DNA from: a virus
Lineage: Duplodnaviria > Heunggongvirae > Uroviricota > Caudoviricetes
Direction: 5' to 3' (one strand)
DNA length: 64,000 bases
Virus record (IMG/VR): IMGVR_UViG_2595698548_000001
Location: 194,140-258,139 of that record
Part shown: piece by piece, positions 23,099 to 47,593 of the stretch
How the letters are laid out: each line of letters starts with the position of its first letter
Numbering within the stretch: the first letter of the stretch is position 1
Notes under the pieces: model-generated
Databases searched by the model: none
What the model was told of the DNA's origin: nothing
Seen by the model: the letters and a program-made list of their open reading frames with translations, nothing else
Made by a program: the position numbers and the translations under genes

Positions 23099-24982
23099 AT
23101 GCGCGTGGCTAAAATAGCAAGACGCCAAAAGAGCCCGGTGAGCCCACAGTTCGGCGAGCACTTCGGGAAAATTTTCAGTGATGATCTGTACGAAGACGGA
23201 CTACCCAGGCCGCGCTTCCCGTACATGCGCAATGCTCCAGCGCAAACCTGGGTGGGCATGGTCCCAAATCAAGTGGTGTCTACCCAGCAGTGCTCGTTCA
23301 CGCCAGGCACTGGCCTTGGGACTATTGGTGTGTCTGTGGCAAGTCTTCCCCACATTAACGGACACAACAGCGAGTGGTTCTGGTCAACCAAGGGCATCAC
23401 TGCAGGGAACCGCTACCGTTCGTACAACGGACGTATGTACGATCAGAACGGGGAGATTTACTTCTCCCCATACAACATCGGTCAGACGTTCTATGACGGT
23501 GATACCGTTGTTGCCGGTTGGGGACTGGAGATCGTATACGAGACTGCTCAGGTCTTCTTGATCAAGTTGATTGCCCGTCCAAGCACGACCTCCTATCAGG
23601 GCGTTTTCGATGGTGGTGGTTACGGCACGTGCGCTCTTGCCATGCTGTTCAAGTCCAACAAGAGCGTGCAAAACGAACTGCTCGGAAACTTCGACATCCA
23701 CTATCTTGGACGCACGCCAGATAGTGCCCTGGGCGCGAACGACGGAAAGACAACCTTTTTGGTGCAGTCGCATCTGTTGCGCTCACACTCGTATCAAACT
23801 GGCATAGTGGATGACTTGGGTACAAGCACAGGACACGGTGCAAAATTCCACTTGTTGCAGTTGGACGAGTCCGTGAATATCCAGTCGCACCCTGCTTGGA
23901 AGTTCTCGCTTCTGGCAAGAGTCGGCTCTGGCATTCAAGGTTTCATTGCACCAAAGCAGAAATTGCTCATTGCCTTCGACAAGTCGACCTGCCGGTACGA
24001 CGAAGACGACCGCATCGTCGGCTTTTCTTTCGCTGGTGCTGATACTGCTAAAGTTGCCGAATCGTGGCCGTTGTTGTCAGCGGCTATGCAATTCGGATTG
24101 GACGACAATCTGTCCGTGTTCAACGTGGACTTTACCGGACCTTCGACCTTTGGTGTGGTAGCGTCTCCGAAGTTGCCTCTGCCTGCCCAGTGGCTTTCCG
24201 CCCAATGGTTGCTGAACAGTGGCACATCCAACAACTTCGTACTGTCGCTCGCTAATGGTAAGTCGTGGTCGTATGTCCATGACGGCCTGAAGTATCTGGC
24301 TGTATTCCTGAATGCTACTGGCTTCGATGAATATCGGTACAGCGACACGACCAGCTTTGCCAACGTGCGTACTCCGCCAGCACTGCCTCCTTTGCTCTTT
24401 CGTGCGCCGATCAACGACCAGGGAGTCGTGTCTGGACCGTGGAGTGTGACGGAGTATCCTGTGCATTTTGGCATTGGTTTGCGCGAACGTGCGATGCTGC
24501 TGACTGAATCCAGGAAGCGTCTGGTCATGGCTCACGAACAAGTGCGCTACGCCTTTCGCCAACTGAACACGCCGACAGTCGATCCGCAAAACGTCATCGT
24601 TACGATTGACGCTGCGACAGGCGAGCATGAAATACACAGGCTGCCAGAGGGCGATCAGTTCGAGATCGGTATCGTGTCCTTCGGCGTCAGTGGCGAGGAT
24701 GTTTACGTTCTCACCCGAGATTTCTGCCAATACGTGCTGCGTCCAAATGGCATCCTCCCGACGCTGTCGCTGGACAAAGAGACATACCAGCGTGGAGATA
24801 CCGCGACGCTGACCATCACCGTCCCGGAGTCGTGTCGTGTTAAGCTGGAGCTGTTCGGATGCAGGTACGAGGGTAACCGCAATATCGATGTCTTGGTCGC
24901 CGCAAGCGAGCAACTACAATTAGACGTGGTAGGCTGCGTTGAAGTGCATGTTACCTACTGCGAACCGGAGGTGCAAGAATGA
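23099..24982 (+). CDS. structural paralog 2
   Basis: ATG at 23099 follows GGAG. Motifs ..KGITAGNRYRS.., ..DIHYLGRT.. and C-terminal ..YQRGDTATLTITV...VKLELFGC... Confidence 0.7.
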   Translation: MRVAKIARRQKSPVSPQFGEHFGKIFSDDLYEDGLPRPRFPYMRNAPAQTWVGMVPNQVVSTQQCSFTPGTGLGTIGVSVASLPHINGHNSEWFWSTKGITAGNRYRSYNGRMYDQNGEIYFSPYNIGQTFYDGDTVVAGWGLEIVYETAQVFLIKLIARPSTTSYQGVFDGGGYGTCALAMLFKSNKSVQNELLGNFDIHYLGRTPDSALGANDGKTTFLVQSHLLRSHSYQTGIVDDLGTSTGHGAKFHLLQLDESVNIQSHPAWKFSLLARVGSGIQGFIAPKQKLLIAFDKSTCRYDEDDRIVGFSFAGADTAKVAESWPLLSAAMQFGLDDNLSVFNVDFTGPSTFGVVASPKLPLPAQWLSAQWLLNSGTSNNFVLSLANGKSWSYVHDGLKYLAVFLNATGFDEYRYSDTTSFANVRTPPALPPLLFRAPINDQGVVSGPWSVTEYPVHFGIGLRERAMLLTESRKRLVMAHEQVRYAFRQLNTPTVDPQNVIVTIDAATGEHEIHRLPEGDQFEIGIVSFGVSGEDVYVLTRDFCQYVLRPNGILPTLSLDKETYQRGDTATLTITVPESCRVKLELFGCRYEGNRNIDVLVAASEQLQLDVVGCVEVHVTYCEPEVQE

Positions 24983-26766
24983 AGATAGTCCAGATGCCCG
25001 AGGACTTGAATCGCAGGAGCGAATACTTCGGGCTATATCGTGGAGAGCTGTATTCTGGCGACGTGGCCGTATCAGGTAATCCGGTTCCGAAAGCGTCTCG
25101 ATATTACCCGTCGAAGTCAAAACAGTTTGATGCCATCAAGATGGTGTCTTCCGGCTCCGGGTACCCGCAAGGAATGTTTATCGACGTTCCGGGTTCTTTG
25201 ATGGCGGTACAGGGGACGGCCAACTTTGTTGCTGTCGCAAACCCATCGCAGCTACGCGGCGCACAAAATCAACCGTTTGAGTCCAAGCTCGGCGCCACGG
25301 CTGGAAAGACTCTGTTCCAGCACGGCCACAACATCATCGTCAATCAGGACTACGAACAGGAATTCAGTATTTCAGGCACTGCACTGAACACGGCAAACGC
25401 CAACTCCGAGGGAGTGTCCGCCTTCTTCACCAACGGTCGTATCGTAGGTGAGACGAATACGCACCTGTTCGTGCACCAATTCCGCTTCGAGGATGGCGGC
25501 AACGATGAGTCCGCATTCTACGCACTGCACAAGGTGACTGGTGTTTTGATCCGGGTGCTGCGCGGGCGCTTTGACCTAGAGTATCTCGGAGAGGATTCCA
25601 ACTCCAATCCGCTGTTCTGGGTCAACGCACAGCAGCTAACTGATGCTCCTGCGAGCTTCTCTTTCGTAGGCACAGGAACGGGCGCCGGGTGCGCACAATA
25701 CCTGATGCGCGGAGTTCCTACTCCAACAGGGGTGGGGAACTTCGTGCAGGTGTACGTCGAGCGCATGGGCAATGGCGTCGCAAGCGGTGCTTCTGGACGG
25801 ACCAACTGCGTTACCTTGTGCTCGACTGACGCACCGATCGTCGAGTATGACGGCAACGGTAAAGTCGCGGCGTTCACCTTGCTCAATACAGACGACACTC
25901 GCCTTACGTGCGGCTCCAGCACCTTCCCGGGTTTGCGTGGCGGGTACTACGTCAACTGGTGTCGATATACGCTCAGTGCGGGCGTGCTGACTCGACAGAT
26001 TCTCCAACGTATCGACATCACCGAATACGAAGGAGCCGTGTTCAACAACCAAGACCCGTCGTACGGCAAGTCCTCCTCGCTGATTCAGTGCGTCTACTTC
26101 GTTGAGGACAATCAGCTATGCGCAGTCTTTGGTAACGGAGGTGCCCTGACATATCTTCCTTCGGACAACAGATTTCAGGCCGCCATTCTACCTACGCTGT
26201 TACTGCGTGCGTCCGTAGGAGAGCAGAACCAGCTCGGTGAGTTAGAGTGGCAGCGACTCGATCTAGCGGTGACGCCCAACTACGTCTTCAACTTCGGAAT
26301 GCTGGACAAGAAAGCCAAGAAGCTGTGGCAGGTTAGTTCTATGTCCTTCCGCAGGGACTTTCTTGAAGTGCGTTGCCTGAGTTTGTCGGATGTCCTGTGC
26401 GCCGACTACGGATATGTCTCGGGCAAGTCTTTCGCCATGGGTGCTGTGGATGGACGCCTCCTAGCAGCCGTGCAAGTCGAAGGCAACATGGTCAGGAAGT
26501 ATCAGTTCGTCTCCGAAGCGGTTGGAGCTAACGTCACTCTGGCTTTCAACCAAGCTGAGTACCAAGTCGGAGATACTGCGACGCTTACCGTGAACTCAGA
26601 CGTTGAGTTGCTGGTCACAGTGGAGCTCGACGGCGGTACGTTCTCGGATACCACAGACTCCAAAGAGTTTCAGGTGTTCGGCGAACTTCAACTGCCCGTG
26701 ACGGTCAAAGCTGCGCTCTCCGCCTCCGTGTCCAACATTCGTTTGCCTGAAGAGGTGCCAGAATGA
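24979..26766 (+). CDS. structural paralog 3
   Basis: RBS CGGAGGTG and ATGA overlap. Motifs ..LGATAGKTLFQ.., ..DLEYLGED.. and C-terminal ..YQVGDTATLTVNS... Confidence 0.7.
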   Translation: MKIVQMPEDLNRRSEYFGLYRGELYSGDVAVSGNPVPKASRYYPSKSKQFDAIKMVSSGSGYPQGMFIDVPGSLMAVQGTANFVAVANPSQLRGAQNQPFESKLGATAGKTLFQHGHNIIVNQDYEQEFSISGTALNTANANSEGVSAFFTNGRIVGETNTHLFVHQFRFEDGGNDESAFYALHKVTGVLIRVLRGRFDLEYLGEDSNSNPLFWVNAQQLTDAPASFSFVGTGTGAGCAQYLMRGVPTPTGVGNFVQVYVERMGNGVASGASGRTNCVTLCSTDAPIVEYDGNGKVAAFTLLNTDDTRLTCGSSTFPGLRGGYYVNWCRYTLSAGVLTRQILQRIDITEYEGAVFNNQDPSYGKSSSLIQCVYFVEDNQLCAVFGNGGALTYLPSDNRFQAAILPTLLLRASVGEQNQLGELEWQRLDLAVTPNYVFNFGMLDKKAKKLWQVSSMSFRRDFLEVRCLSLSDVLCADYGYVSGKSFAMGAVDGRLLAAVQVEGNMVRKYQFVSEAVGANVTLAFNQAEYQVGDTATLTVNSDVELLVTVELDGGTFSDTTDSKEFQVFGELQLPVTVKAALSASVSNIRLPEEVPE

Positions 26767-40770: not shown

Positions 40771-40962
40771 ATGTCTGTCATGGGAAGACGCGATTCGCCA
40801 ACTGCTAGTCCGTGTGTTGGCCGTTGCAGCCATTGTGTCGGCGATGCGATATGCAGAGGATGTGGTAGGACACTCGAAGAAGTGCGCGATTGGAACTCCT
40901 ACTCCGATGATGAGAAGATCGAAGTCAAGAAAGCATGTATGCAACGGAAACGGGAGCCCTAG
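40771..40962 (+). CDS. DUF1289-like Cys-rich small protein
   Basis: Motif CVGRCSHCVGDAICRGCGRTLEEVRDW, matching C-x-G-x-C...C-x-G-C-x-R-T-x-E-E-I-x-x-W. Confidence 0.6.
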   Translation: MSVMGRRDSPTASPCVGRCSHCVGDAICRGCGRTLEEVRDWNSYSDDEKIEVKKACMQRKREP

Positions 40963-40981
40963 GGCTCCCGTTGTTGTTTCC
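40951..40981 (+). terminator. intrinsic terminator for the + (late) transcripts
   Basis: Stem CGGGAGCC / GGCTCCCG with loop CTAG (containing the TAG stop), followed by TTGTTGTTTCC. Confidence 0.65.
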
Positions 40982-40986
40982 GCACG

Positions 40987-41011
40987 CAAAAGAAAGGGAG
41001 CCGAAGCTCCC
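40987..41011 (-). terminator. intrinsic terminator for the - (early) transcripts, UUCG tetraloop
   Basis: On the minus strand it reads GGGAGC-UUCG-GCUCCC followed by UUUCUUUUG. It sits at the convergent junction with the previous terminator. Confidence 0.65.
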
Positions 41012-41137
41012 TGTCACCGCTATGGTGCCGACCATCTGGTCTTCCACTCTTTGACCCGAGTCGTGGTATCTCGGAGATAGCGGATCACCTCCTGCTGCAA
41101 GAGCAGAGAGACAACCTCTCTAGCCCGCAACGATAAA

Positions 41138-43997: not shown

Positions 43998-44522
43998 TCA
44001 CCAGTCAAAATGTTGTGGTCTCTTGTACGTACGGTATCCGCGTCTGCCGTTCTTGGTGTTGCGGTGCGTGTCCAGCTGCGGACCTATGTCGGTAAGCTCA
44101 CCGAGTTTCCACTTGCCGGTGTACAAGCACAAGCACATGCCGATAAACTGCCACTTCGGACCTACGCGGAAATCCTTTTGGTCTTCTTCTGCCTTATCGC
44201 AGGACAGTTTGTCACAGCCTGCGATCTTGTAATACTCGATGCCTTCCGTCTCGTGCAAGTCACCCAAGTGAATTGCAACAAGATCGGTGCACATAAACAT
44301 CGTGCGTCGAAATTCGTTGGCCACGCGGTTTGCGTAGCGTATCGCTCTGACTTCGTTCCCATACCTACTGGACGACTCTATTGCTTTCGAGTACAGCGGA
44401 GGGAACGCACCGCCTGGGCGGCGAGCGTTGTGGAGAGTGCAAATACGCTCAACCAGTTCCCGCGAGCAGCCTGAGAACACAAAGGCACGCTTCGAGGAGT
44501 GGGACACTGCGTACACGGACAT
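43998..44522 (-). CDS. hypothetical Cys-rich protein
   Basis: RBS GGGGAAGAG. Confidence 0.5.
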   Translation of the reverse strand: MSVYAVSHSSKRAFVFSGCSRELVERICTLHNARRPGGAFPPLYSKAIESSSRYGNEVRAIRYANRVANEFRRTMFMCTDLVAIHLGDLHETEGIEYYKIAGCDKLSCDKAEEDQKDFRVGPKWQFIGMCLCLYTGKWKLGELTDIGPQLDTHRNTKNGRRGYRTYKRPQHFDW

Positions 44523-44539: not shown

Positions 44540-44559
44540 AAGCGGCCCGAAGGCCGCTT
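44540..44559 (-). terminator. UUCG-tetraloop hairpin downstream of the SPFH gene (terminator/stabiliser)
   Basis: On the minus strand: AAGCGGCC-UUCG-GGCCGCUU, a perfect 8-bp stem, then UUCC.. and only a short U tract. It lies 17 nt upstream of the next start codon. Confidence 0.45.
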
Positions 44560-44568
44560 GTGGATCGC

Positions 44569-45408
44569 TTACTTGACGCTGATATTCGGCATCGCGCCGG
44601 GTGCCATGATCACGCACGTGGACTTCGCACACGCATCGCTGTACGCCTTGATGGCGTTGACTTGCAGCGACTGTTCGGCGGTGTAGCCCATCTTGTCGGC
44701 GTATTCCTTGTCCGCTTCGGCGCGTGCCTTCTCAGACTTCTTACGCTGGATTTCGGCAGCTTCTTTCGCAACCAGTGTCACAGAACGCTGCTGCTCCGCT
44801 GCCGTTTCGTCCAGCTGATCAACCACCTTGTCGTTCGGTCGCCCGCGGCCCATGTTGAAGTCGGTGATGATGACATTCAGCCCATCGGCCTTGGCACGAT
44901 CATTCAGGGTCTGCAGGAGTGCCTTCTCGATGTCCGCCGCCACAGTTGCATCAGATAGGAGCTGGCTCATGGTGTACGACTTTGCCAGATCGCGGAACGT
45001 GGACTGCCACGGTGCCATCAGGTTGTTGTCGAACCACTTTTCACCCTTGGTCTGAATGAGCTGGCGCGCATCCGTCACTCGCACTTGAATGGACGTCGTG
45101 TAGTCCAGCAAGTAGTTATCCTTCGTGGGCAAGTCCTCGAAGGGCAGTTCGATACGTTCTGGCAAGACGTTCACCGGAATGCCCACTGTGGTGAGCCATT
45201 CGACGCTTCGACTGCCGGACTTGAGCGTGTAGGGACGTACACCCTCAGCACCCCAGAAGTACGGACGATCCACGAGGACAACCTCCTGACCGTTCTCCGC
45301 GATGATCGAGTGCTTGAAGAACACCCAGATGACGACTTGGGCTACCACGAACAGGGCAGCCAGAGCTGCGATCAGCCACACGATAACGTGGCCACGATTG
45401 TTGCGCAT
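44569..45408 (-). CDS. SPFH/band-7 (HflC/stomatin-like) membrane protein
   Basis: N-terminal transmembrane segment (VIVWLIAALAALFVVAQVVIWVFF) then a band-7 core (..LLDYTTSIQVRVTDARQLI..) and a C-terminal coiled-coil (..AAEQQRSVTLVAKEAAEIQRKKSEKARAEADKEYADKM..). RBS AAGGAAA. Confidence 0.8.
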   Translation of the reverse strand: MRNNRGHVIVWLIAALAALFVVAQVVIWVFFKHSIIAENGQEVVLVDRPYFWGAEGVRPYTLKSGSRSVEWLTTVGIPVNVLPERIELPFEDLPTKDNYLLDYTTSIQVRVTDARQLIQTKGEKWFDNNLMAPWQSTFRDLAKSYTMSQLLSDATVAADIEKALLQTLNDRAKADGLNVIITDFNMGRGRPNDKVVDQLDETAAEQQRSVTLVAKEAAEIQRKKSEKARAEADKEYADKMGYTAEQSLQVNAIKAYSDACAKSTCVIMAPGAMPNISVK

Positions 45409-45425
45409 GTTTGTATTTCCTTGTG

Positions 45426-46550: not shown

Positions 46551-47234
46551 TCAAAACCTGTCCGATGAAATTCGCGGAAGCGGAGCCTGAAGTCGTTCTT
46601 GGTCGCGTCTACCCCATCCACTACCTGCATTCGCAAAGCCTGTGCGGCTTCCAGACAGGACGCCTTCGTAGTAGTAGAGGAGTTCTCGGCAGAGGGATTG
46701 CAAGACACGTTCGACATAGTTGAGCCTGCTTGGGTCCATGTTCGTGAGAGTGCGGAGTTTTTCTGCGGTGTCCGGGTCCACACGGTACAGTGGACGTATG
46801 AGAGCCAACACCGTTTCGATGATCCCTGTGATCGGGTGAAACTTGAGCGTGTGATTCCCCTGGACATCGCCGTACACTGTCATATCTACCGTGTGATCGA
46901 CAGTGAATCCGCAGACTTCCGTCAACGAATACACAGCGTCCATGTATTCACGGAACAAGGCCATGTCCCGAGTAAGCAGCTCAAATTCGAGCTTCGGGAG
47001 ATTGGATTTTTGAGTGTACGCAGGTGTTGCAGAGTGCCCTGAGTAAAATAGGTCCGGACTTGGAAACTGAATGTTCACGCTGAACGAACCGCCCAAGCGG
47101 CTACAACGCAGAAACAACGTGAACCACTCCACCATGAGCAACGCAGCCGGCTTGTTGTCCTCGTCGGCCTTGGTTTCAGCCAACTCCTTCAGGACATCTG
47201 CTAGCGCCCTTTCGCCTTGCCCGATTGCTTGCAT
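46551..47234 (-). CDS. hypothetical protein
   Basis: Overlaps the DUF4326 gene upstream by 34 nt. Confidence 0.45.
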   Translation of the reverse strand: MQAIGQGERALADVLKELAETKADEDNKPAALLMVEWFTLFLRCSRLGGSFSVNIQFPSPDLFYSGHSATPAYTQKSNLPKLEFELLTRDMALFREYMDAVYSLTEVCGFTVDHTVDMTVYGDVQGNHTLKFHPITGIIETVLALIRPLYRVDPDTAEKLRTLTNMDPSRLNYVERVLQSLCRELLYYYEGVLSGSRTGFANAGSGWGRRDQERLQAPLPRISSDRF

Positions 47235-47593
47235 TTCATCAGCCTCTTGACCTGTTTGATTACGGAGTCCCCATGGCAGCGCTCATTCGCGTCGCAGAAG
47301 CATACAAGCCGAACGTCATGTCCAGCTTGCAACCACTCCACGATTTTGTTGAGCCTCTCCATGATCGCCTTGTCTTTGTGCTTTACACTAAGCTCCAAGG
47401 CGGTGTCATACAGGTCGCACACTTCGTCGCGGTTGCCGTCTCGACCGAGCACGTAATCGTTACCCAAAGGCGACGGCCTGCCGATGAACTCATCAATCGT
47501 CGGAGCTTTTCGTGGGTCCAAAATAACGACAGGACGGCGGCTGTGATTGATCCGACTCAAGACGCCAAGGGTGTTGGTTTTGCCGAAAAGCAT
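47201..47593 (-). CDS. DUF4326-family protein
   Basis: ..IGRPSPLGNDYVLG..DRDEVCDLY.. resembles the DUF4326 signature (GRPSPWGNPF). Confidence 0.55.
   Translation of the reverse strand: MLFGKTNTLGVLSRINHSRRPVVILDPRKAPTIDEFIGRPSPLGNDYVLGRDGNRDEVCDLYDTALELSVKHKDKAIMERLNKIVEWLQAGHDVRLVCFCDANERCHGDSVIKQVKRLMKCKQSGKAKGR

Follow-up and report, generated by a model that had tools for sequence, protein, structure and literature searches.

SPFH proteins in bacteria and phages

HflK and HflC, the SPFH3 proteins that build the E. coli FtsH cage (PDB 7vhp, 7wi3 and 9cz2), are encoded as a gene pair. The proteins of the SPFH1, SPFH2 and SPFH5 classes, among them QmcA-YbbJ and the other SPFH-NfeD pairs (PDB 8z5g), face the cytoplasm and are encoded together with NfeD. 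In a survey of prokaryotic SPFH genes, NfeD was found only with these cytoplasm-facing classes, and no NfeD partner was found for SPFH3 and SPFH4, the periplasm-facing HflK/C class and the prohibitin-like class (PMC2636767). SPFH genes of phages have been reported in genome papers since 2006 (PMC1524935), and the genome papers describe the function of the phage family as unknown (PMC7760394, PMC13239085). Our search of the literature for an experimentally characterised phage SPFH protein returned only remarks of this kind in genome papers. SPFH genes are common in phages, with representatives in Kuttervirus, T4-like phages and jumbo phages, and they also occur in giant viruses; in a fold search of viral models, we recovered SPFH proteins from many members of both groups.

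We analysed one such gene in a window of 64,000 nucleotides. Over 4 kb around the gene, the sequence agrees at 100% with that of Pseudomonas phage PaBG (KF147891/NC_022096; 258,139 bp; genus Baikalvirus), and the window corresponds to the final 64 kb of that record, so that window positions equal PaBG record positions minus 194,139. The gene is PaBG_00287 (44569..45408, minus strand), an 840-nt ORF that encodes 279 aa and matches KF147891 over its length at 100%. GenBank and the supplement of the 2020 genome paper name it "putative FtsH protease regulator HflK", and the main text of either PaBG paper does not mention it. PaBG_00287 is thus already known, and its database label carries roughly the interpretation reached in the first-pass annotation, which was made from the sequence alone; the gene itself represents no new kind of element. 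The present analysis adds a predicted exported orientation, a conserved cysteine pair, a failed test of HflK membership and the conservation of an intergenic hairpin.

PaBG_00287 is an SPFH/band-7 protein

The first-pass annotation had assigned PaBG_00287 to the SPFH/band-7 proteins and named a Pfam search as the way to check this. PaBG_00287 matches Band_7 (PF01145) over residues 74-224 with E=4.8e-16 and 59.7 bits, well above the gathering cut-off of 23.6, which confirms the assignment. An AlphaFold2 monomer model built on 15 homologues (mean pLDDT 81.5) places a helix at residues 5-31, an alpha/beta core at residues 32-190, two further helices at residues 193-240 (48 residues) and 244-261, and a disordered tail. 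Within the core, strands are found in residues 32-111, helices in 114-174, and a final strand at 179-185. On the DNA, the N-terminal membrane helix, identified by the model, hydrophobicity and flank charges as a signal anchor with predicted N-in/C-out orientation, occupies 45316..45396 (minus strand). The SPFH core, supported by the Pfam match, the model and Foldseek, follows at 44839..45315 (minus strand), and the two C-terminal helices (residues 193-261), which correspond in the model and in Foldseek alignments to the wall and roof part of SPFH cages, lie at 44626..44832 (minus strand).

Using Foldseek against the PDB, we found full-length matches that span about 250 columns, with E values from 1e-12 to 1e-8. 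The matched proteins are human prohibitin (PHB1/2), E. coli HflK/C, stomatin, erlin and QmcA, each of which has been solved as a large membrane-attached cage. The model and the Foldseek alignments agree with the proposed layout of an N-terminal membrane segment, a band-7 core and a helical tail. As modelled, PaBG_00287 has the full layout of a cage-forming SPFH protein, comprising the anchor, the core, the long helix, the second helix and a C-terminal tail. Structural alignments to other viral SPFH models give only 12-16% sequence identity, and among the SPFH genes of other viruses, which are known from the T4-like phages 44RR, Aeh1 and RB43, from RaK2-like jumbo phages and from giant viruses, several fall into different SPFH clades.

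PaBG_00287 belongs to the PHROG 200 family and scores below the HflK equivalog cut-off

PaBG_00287 matches PHROG 200, a family annotated as "lipoprotein", over residues 11-255 (E=9.5e-26). A search of 1.84 billion cluster representatives with the family profile returned 570 matches at E<=1e-3, 180 of them at E<=1e-30, and almost all of the best 150 of the 570 are approximately 260-310 aa long. Judged by their sequences, the PHROG 200 proteins form a compact, distinct clade that is sharply set off from the remaining SPFH superfamily. Its phage members, which include those of the Kutterviruses Vi01, CBA120 (orf126) and PhiSH19 and of the Stenotrophomonas phages DLP_5 and Siara, resemble PaBG_00287 in size (about 260-290 aa) and in the lack of a partner gene. 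They also share with it a conserved N-terminal motif directly behind the anchor and a C-terminal Cys-x-Cys followed by a hydrophobic strand, and are only 29-41% identical to it. The Kuttervirus PhiSH19 homologue matches PHROG 200 at 1e-57, but its pairwise profile alignment to the PaBG protein is weak (E=0.08) and aligns the C-terminal motif alone, so that common family membership rests on the PHROG HMM. PaBG_00287 is a genuine SPFH/band-7 protein of a widespread phage family.

We compared the family profile with solved chains and found HflK to be nearest (2e-9), with archaeal stomatin in second place (1e-4); the matches listed do not include HflC, prohibitin or QmcA. A single-sequence search instead gave QmcA as the nearest solved chain (E=8e-4). 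In the NCBIfam equivalog model for HflK (TIGR01933), PaBG_00287 scores only 32 bits against a cut-off of 159.4. This failure leaves membership of HflK proper unsupported, and the "HflK" label is the name of the nearest neighbour and not a statement of membership. As a practical caution, the name "FtsH protease regulator HflK" used in the databases is too specific for PaBG_00287.

PaBG_00287 shares with HflK/HflC the full-length fold, the predicted N-in/C-out topology and the lack of NfeD, but HflK has 419 aa with a long N-terminal extension that the 279-aa phage protein does not have. HflK and HflC form a gene pair, whereas PaBG_00287 is a single gene with a C-terminal cysteine pair. We found no HflC-like second subunit: there is a single SPFH locus in the phage, a Pfam scan detects no Band_7 domain in the neighbours of PaBG_00287, and the published PaBG annotation uses the terms HflK and FtsH for PaBG_00287 only and does not contain the terms NfeD, SPFH, band 7 or stomatin. 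With QmcA-YbbJ and the other SPFH-NfeD pairs, PaBG_00287 has the Band_7 core and the helical wall in common, but it differs from these cytoplasm-facing proteins in its predicted periplasmic location and in being encoded without NfeD.

Predicted topology and a conserved cysteine pair

Among 149 full-length family representatives, a lipobox Cys stands immediately ahead of the conserved domain motif in 79, a hydrophobic anchor is found at the N-terminus in 66, and 4 show neither feature. Since lipoproteins are exported, the SPFH domain of the PHROG 200 family is expected outside the cytoplasm. PaBG_00287 and its close relatives carry a predicted uncleaved membrane anchor in contrast to the lipobox of the lipoprotein members; no Cys is present within the N-terminal 45 residues of PaBG_00287, where a hydrophobic anchor is found instead. 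Its most hydrophobic window begins at residue 8 or 9 and has flank charges of +2 towards the N-terminus and -1 towards the C-terminus. Most of 15 close homologues have flanks of +1 to +4 and -1 to -3, respectively. A positive N flank combined with a negative C flank predicts an N-in/C-out orientation, and the SPFH domain of PaBG_00287 is accordingly predicted from sequence to face the periplasm.

Near the C-terminus, the alignment of the 15 close homologues revealed a cysteine pair, C260 and C265 (codons at 44614..44631, minus strand), which is followed by the hydrophobic C-terminal segment CVIMAPG. The pair (Cys-x4-6-Cys) is invariant in all 15 close homologues and is present in 73 of the 149 full-length representatives; a Cys-x-Cys with a hydrophobic strand is also aligned in the Kuttervirus PhiSH19 homologue. 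Such conservation would fit an oxidising, periplasmic location, and from it we infer a disulfide between C260 and C265.

Lipoproteins without an Asp at position +2 are sorted to the outer membrane in enterobacteria, a rule that is not valid in all taxa. Among the 79 lipoproteins of the family, 78 have no Asp at +2, the Kuttervirus protein (CGG) being one of them. This suggests, but does no more than suggest, that these members would go to the outer membrane, away from FtsH.

Genomic context and the missing NfeD partner

PaBG_00287 is separated from the upstream gene PaBG_00288 by a 17-nt spacer (45409..45425, minus strand) that contains an AAGGAAA ribosome-binding site and is too short for a promoter as well, and a promoter scan of the minus strand between 40000 and 50000 found no sigma-70-like site. 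The gene lies in a long, polycistronic-looking co-directional array. This array extends through PaBG_00078 down to 00001, with the genes for tail sheath, tail tube and baseplate, then over the record origin and on through PaBG_00322-00280. The description of PaBG_00287 as stand-alone thus holds only in that it has no partner gene; it sits 17 nt behind its neighbour, without a promoter-like site, inside this array. Because the array also holds tail genes, gene orientation is uninformative on the timing of expression, as were the promoter scans, so that the description as an early gene finds no support but is not refuted either. The downstream gene PaBG_00286 (43998..44522, minus strand) encodes a hypothetical protein of 174 aa with neither a Pfam nor a PHROG match, and neither of the two direct neighbours of PaBG_00287 matches a PHROG.

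A Pfam scan of the ten neighbouring ORFs found no NfeD (PF01957) and matched only HTH_43 (PaBG_00285) and DUF4326. Together with the genome annotation, this bears out the earlier statement that no NfeD partner is visible. NfeD is likewise not found around the homologues that we inspected in PaBG-like contigs, in bacterial contexts and in three other phages. The absence is not remarkable and is what is expected for a protein predicted to face the periplasm, since the SPFH3 and SPFH4 classes have no NfeD partner (PMC2636767). Clustering of the ORFs from 96 related loci identified no neighbour family that recurs beyond closely related genomes. The suggested link to bacterial defence systems found no specific support either, as a search of PADLOC-DB returned 0 defence families at E<=1 for PaBG_00287.

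The DUF4326 match (47.6 bits, E=2.8e-12) belongs to an ORF at 47201-47593 (minus strand) that KF147891 leaves unannotated and that occupies the 258-bp gap from PaBG_00290 to PaBG_00291. The annotation has probably overlooked a gene here, one with its true start downstream of that of the longest ORF; its equivalent is called as a 107-aa gene in L002-L004, three metagenomic relatives of the PaBG locus. Elsewhere in the PaBG record (24195-26433), PaBG_00044-00046 encode in a row a lytic transglycosylase, a 'LemA-like structural protein' and a putative membrane protein, an envelope-directed set. In Xanthomonas phage X1, the gene for a transmembrane protein of 81 aa (phrog_1374; L012, 4674-4919) has its end 3 nt ahead of the SPFH gene; locus L005 has a 43-aa ORF in place of this small membrane protein, and PaBG has no such ORF. 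One of the 96 loci, from the Acidobacteriaceae MAG MFD01223.bin.1.4 (L085, 1263-6451), places a lipoprotein member of the SPFH family in a Pfam-confirmed ftsQ-ftsA-SPFH-ftsZ order. We rejected a link to cell division, as the ftsA-SPFH-ftsZ order occurs in this acidobacterial MAG only.

A conserved UUCG hairpin between PaBG_00287 and PaBG_00286

A perfect UUCG-tetraloop hairpin between the gene and its downstream neighbour had been described in the first-pass annotation, and we found it as stated, AAGCGGCC-UUCG-GGCCGCUU with a perfect 8-bp stem (44540..44559, minus strand). The minus strand reads UAA-GCGAUCCAC-AAGCGGCC-UUCG-GGCCGCUU-UCCAUAGGGGAAGAGUU-AUG, such that the hairpin begins 9 nt past the stop of PaBG_00287 and ends 17 nt before the ATG of PaBG_00286, whose ribosome-binding site GGGGAAGAG follows it. 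The C(UUCG)G hairpin has a folding energy of -14.6 kcal/mol. Calling it the gene's own hairpin was an overstatement, because other gaps of at least 40 nt in the array also fold into stem-loops. Perfect 8-bp tetraloop hairpins are not enriched in the window (2 observed versus 1.5 expected from dinucleotide shuffles). The exact motif occurs once in the window and has no Rfam match, and we therefore rejected the ideas that it is a repeat dispersed in the window or an RNA of a known family.

The hairpin is identical in the metagenomic relatives L002-L004, in which the SPFH protein is 75% identical to that of PaBG, and the ribosome-binding region that follows is nearly unchanged, the two together differing at one position in 40 columns. 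A 40-column stretch containing the hairpin is 95% identical, compared with 68% across the three-gene region, and is the best-conserved part of the locus; the 9-10 nt preceding the hairpin differ between PaBG and L002-L004. These are the only relatives that carry the hairpin, and their identical copies offer no compensatory changes as proof of selection on pairing. The more distant relative L015 has no strong hairpin, and our survey of hairpins downstream of homologues, which covered 15 loci, is anecdotal. The case for a real hairpin thus comes from its intergenic position and its conservation, not from statistics.

We do not regard the hairpin as a strong intrinsic terminator. No U-tract follows the stem, the tail being UCCAUAGG, and the terminator scan did not return it. 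Most likely it is a conserved stem-loop between cistrons that acts as a protector of the mRNA 3' end or as a leaky or weak terminator, and in the latter case it would set the level of the SPFH gene relative to that of the genes downstream of it. We consider it improbable that it is a genuine Rho-independent terminator with the SPFH gene as the last gene of its transcription unit. The strong GC-rich stem and the extra-stable cUUCGg loop would suit this role, canonical terminators follow the homologues in the megaplasmid (see below) and in phage DLP_5, and the true terminator at the end of the array likewise has a UUCG loop. Apart from the tail and the failed scan, however, PaBG_00286 begins 17 nt further on, and no promoter could fit in between.

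The leftward array is closed by a convergent terminator pair at 40949..41012. On the minus strand, the hairpin AGGGAGC-UUCG-GCUCCCU (40995-41012) is followed by a U-tract and faces a plus-strand terminator. This bidirectional terminator separates rightward lysis/NUDIX genes from the leftward ORFan array.

Possible roles of PaBG_00287

Our preferred reading, to which we assign a probability of roughly 45%, is that PaBG_00287 forms a periplasm-facing, homo-oligomeric SPFH cage of the exported PHROG 200 clade, with the client left generic. In this model, the N-terminal helix would be a signal anchor that is not cleaved and that keeps the N-terminus cytoplasmic, and the SPFH core and helices would sit at the periplasmic side of the inner membrane, like those of HflK/C. 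The protein would self-assemble into a homo-oligomeric ring or dome that fences off a patch of membrane, with a C260/C265 disulfide near the dome roof, and the scaffold may confine or shield envelope proteins during infection. Because HflK is the closest solved relative by sequence, host FtsH is one candidate client; by analogy we would guess at it for PaBG_00287, not as a family-wide property. If the periplasmic orientation, the cysteine pair and the cage assembly are true, the PHROG 200 family would offer a tractable model of viral envelope remodelling by a self-assembling scaffold, and it would allow a test of whether FtsH is manipulated by phages from the periplasmic side.

It is unlikely that PaBG_00287 is instead a true HflK-type regulator that traps or replaces parts of the host FtsH-HflK/C assembly and alters substrate turnover, for example with the doubtful consequence that phage membrane or regulatory proteins are stabilised. 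HflK is the best solved match of the family profile, and lambda CIII is reportedly a phage precedent for the manipulation of FtsH. Against this, the HflK equivalog model gives 32 bits where 159 are required, which leaves the earlier proposal of a link to FtsH without specific support, and the protein is far shorter than HflK. The predicted periplasmic orientation and the inner-membrane anchor are as in HflK/C (PMC2636767), but the phage has no HflC-like second subunit, the lipoproteins of the family are probably located outside the inner membrane, and the genomic context of the bacterial members is not conserved.

We give a role in envelope protection or superinfection exclusion the same low probability as the FtsH regulator. 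Here a periplasmic SPFH lattice would steady the envelope during a long infection, or would block DNA entry by a secondary phage or lysis from without. Phage-encoded lipoproteins are a classic class of exclusion factors, and the PHROG 200 family is predicted to be exported. In Kuttervirus PhiSH19 the PHROG 200 gene adjoins the superinfection-exclusion gene phrog_1510, but this adjacency was seen in one phage group only, and no neighbour recurs across the family. The latent period of PaBG is long, at 80 min, and lysis is slow (PMC7412058), in keeping with such a role. At the PhiSH19 locus (L113, 1641-2958; JN126049, 74140-75457), the SPFH lipoprotein has the lipobox LLSG-C followed by GG and is encoded about 200 nt from phrog_1510 on the same strand.

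A broader generalisation of the preferred cage reading is less probable still: PHROG 200 as a whole might be a class of disulfide-stapled periplasmic SPFH cages, held by lipid or by a single helix, that wall off part of the envelope for lytic phages of Gram-negative hosts. Such cages could act, with the same low likelihood, either as HflK mimics that capture host FtsH/HflC or as a new superinfection-exclusion or envelope-stabilising device, and PaBG_00287 would then, just as speculatively, be the inner-membrane-anchored version.

Distribution of the family

We searched a phage collection with the PaBG protein (E<=1e-5) and obtained 17 records: PaBG itself and, with identities of 29-41%, jumbo phages of Xanthomonas and siphophages of Stenotrophomonas. 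About 180 further records come from the Kuttervirus branch of PHROG 200, and IMG/VR holds 16 further loci, many of them on contigs of 200-390 kb. Bacterial carriers include a 971-kb Pseudomonas fluorescens megaplasmid, Lysobacter, Rhodanobacter, Pseudoxanthomonas, many Acidobacteriaceae and some CPR bins. Beyond PaBG-like contigs, the closest relatives come from the P. fluorescens megaplasmid, from a metagenome contig of 1.1 Mb and from unrelated phages, and tblastn of the phage collection detected no Pseudomonas phage other than PaBG.

This patchy distribution would suit a dispensable, horizontally acquired accessory gene without a specific role in infection, but that is the least probable of the alternatives for PaBG_00287, because the 75% protein identity between PaBG and its relatives and the maintenance of the invariant motifs point to purifying selection.

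Among cultured bacteria, the closest homologue (L031/L009) is encoded on plasmid pMPCFBP13716 of P. fluorescens CFBP13716 (CP185741.1, 971 kb), a location that may point to an exchange of genes by jumbo phages and megaplasmids. There it lies within more than 16 kb of small genes without Pfam matches; a canonical terminator stands behind it, and its identity to the PaBG protein is 52%.
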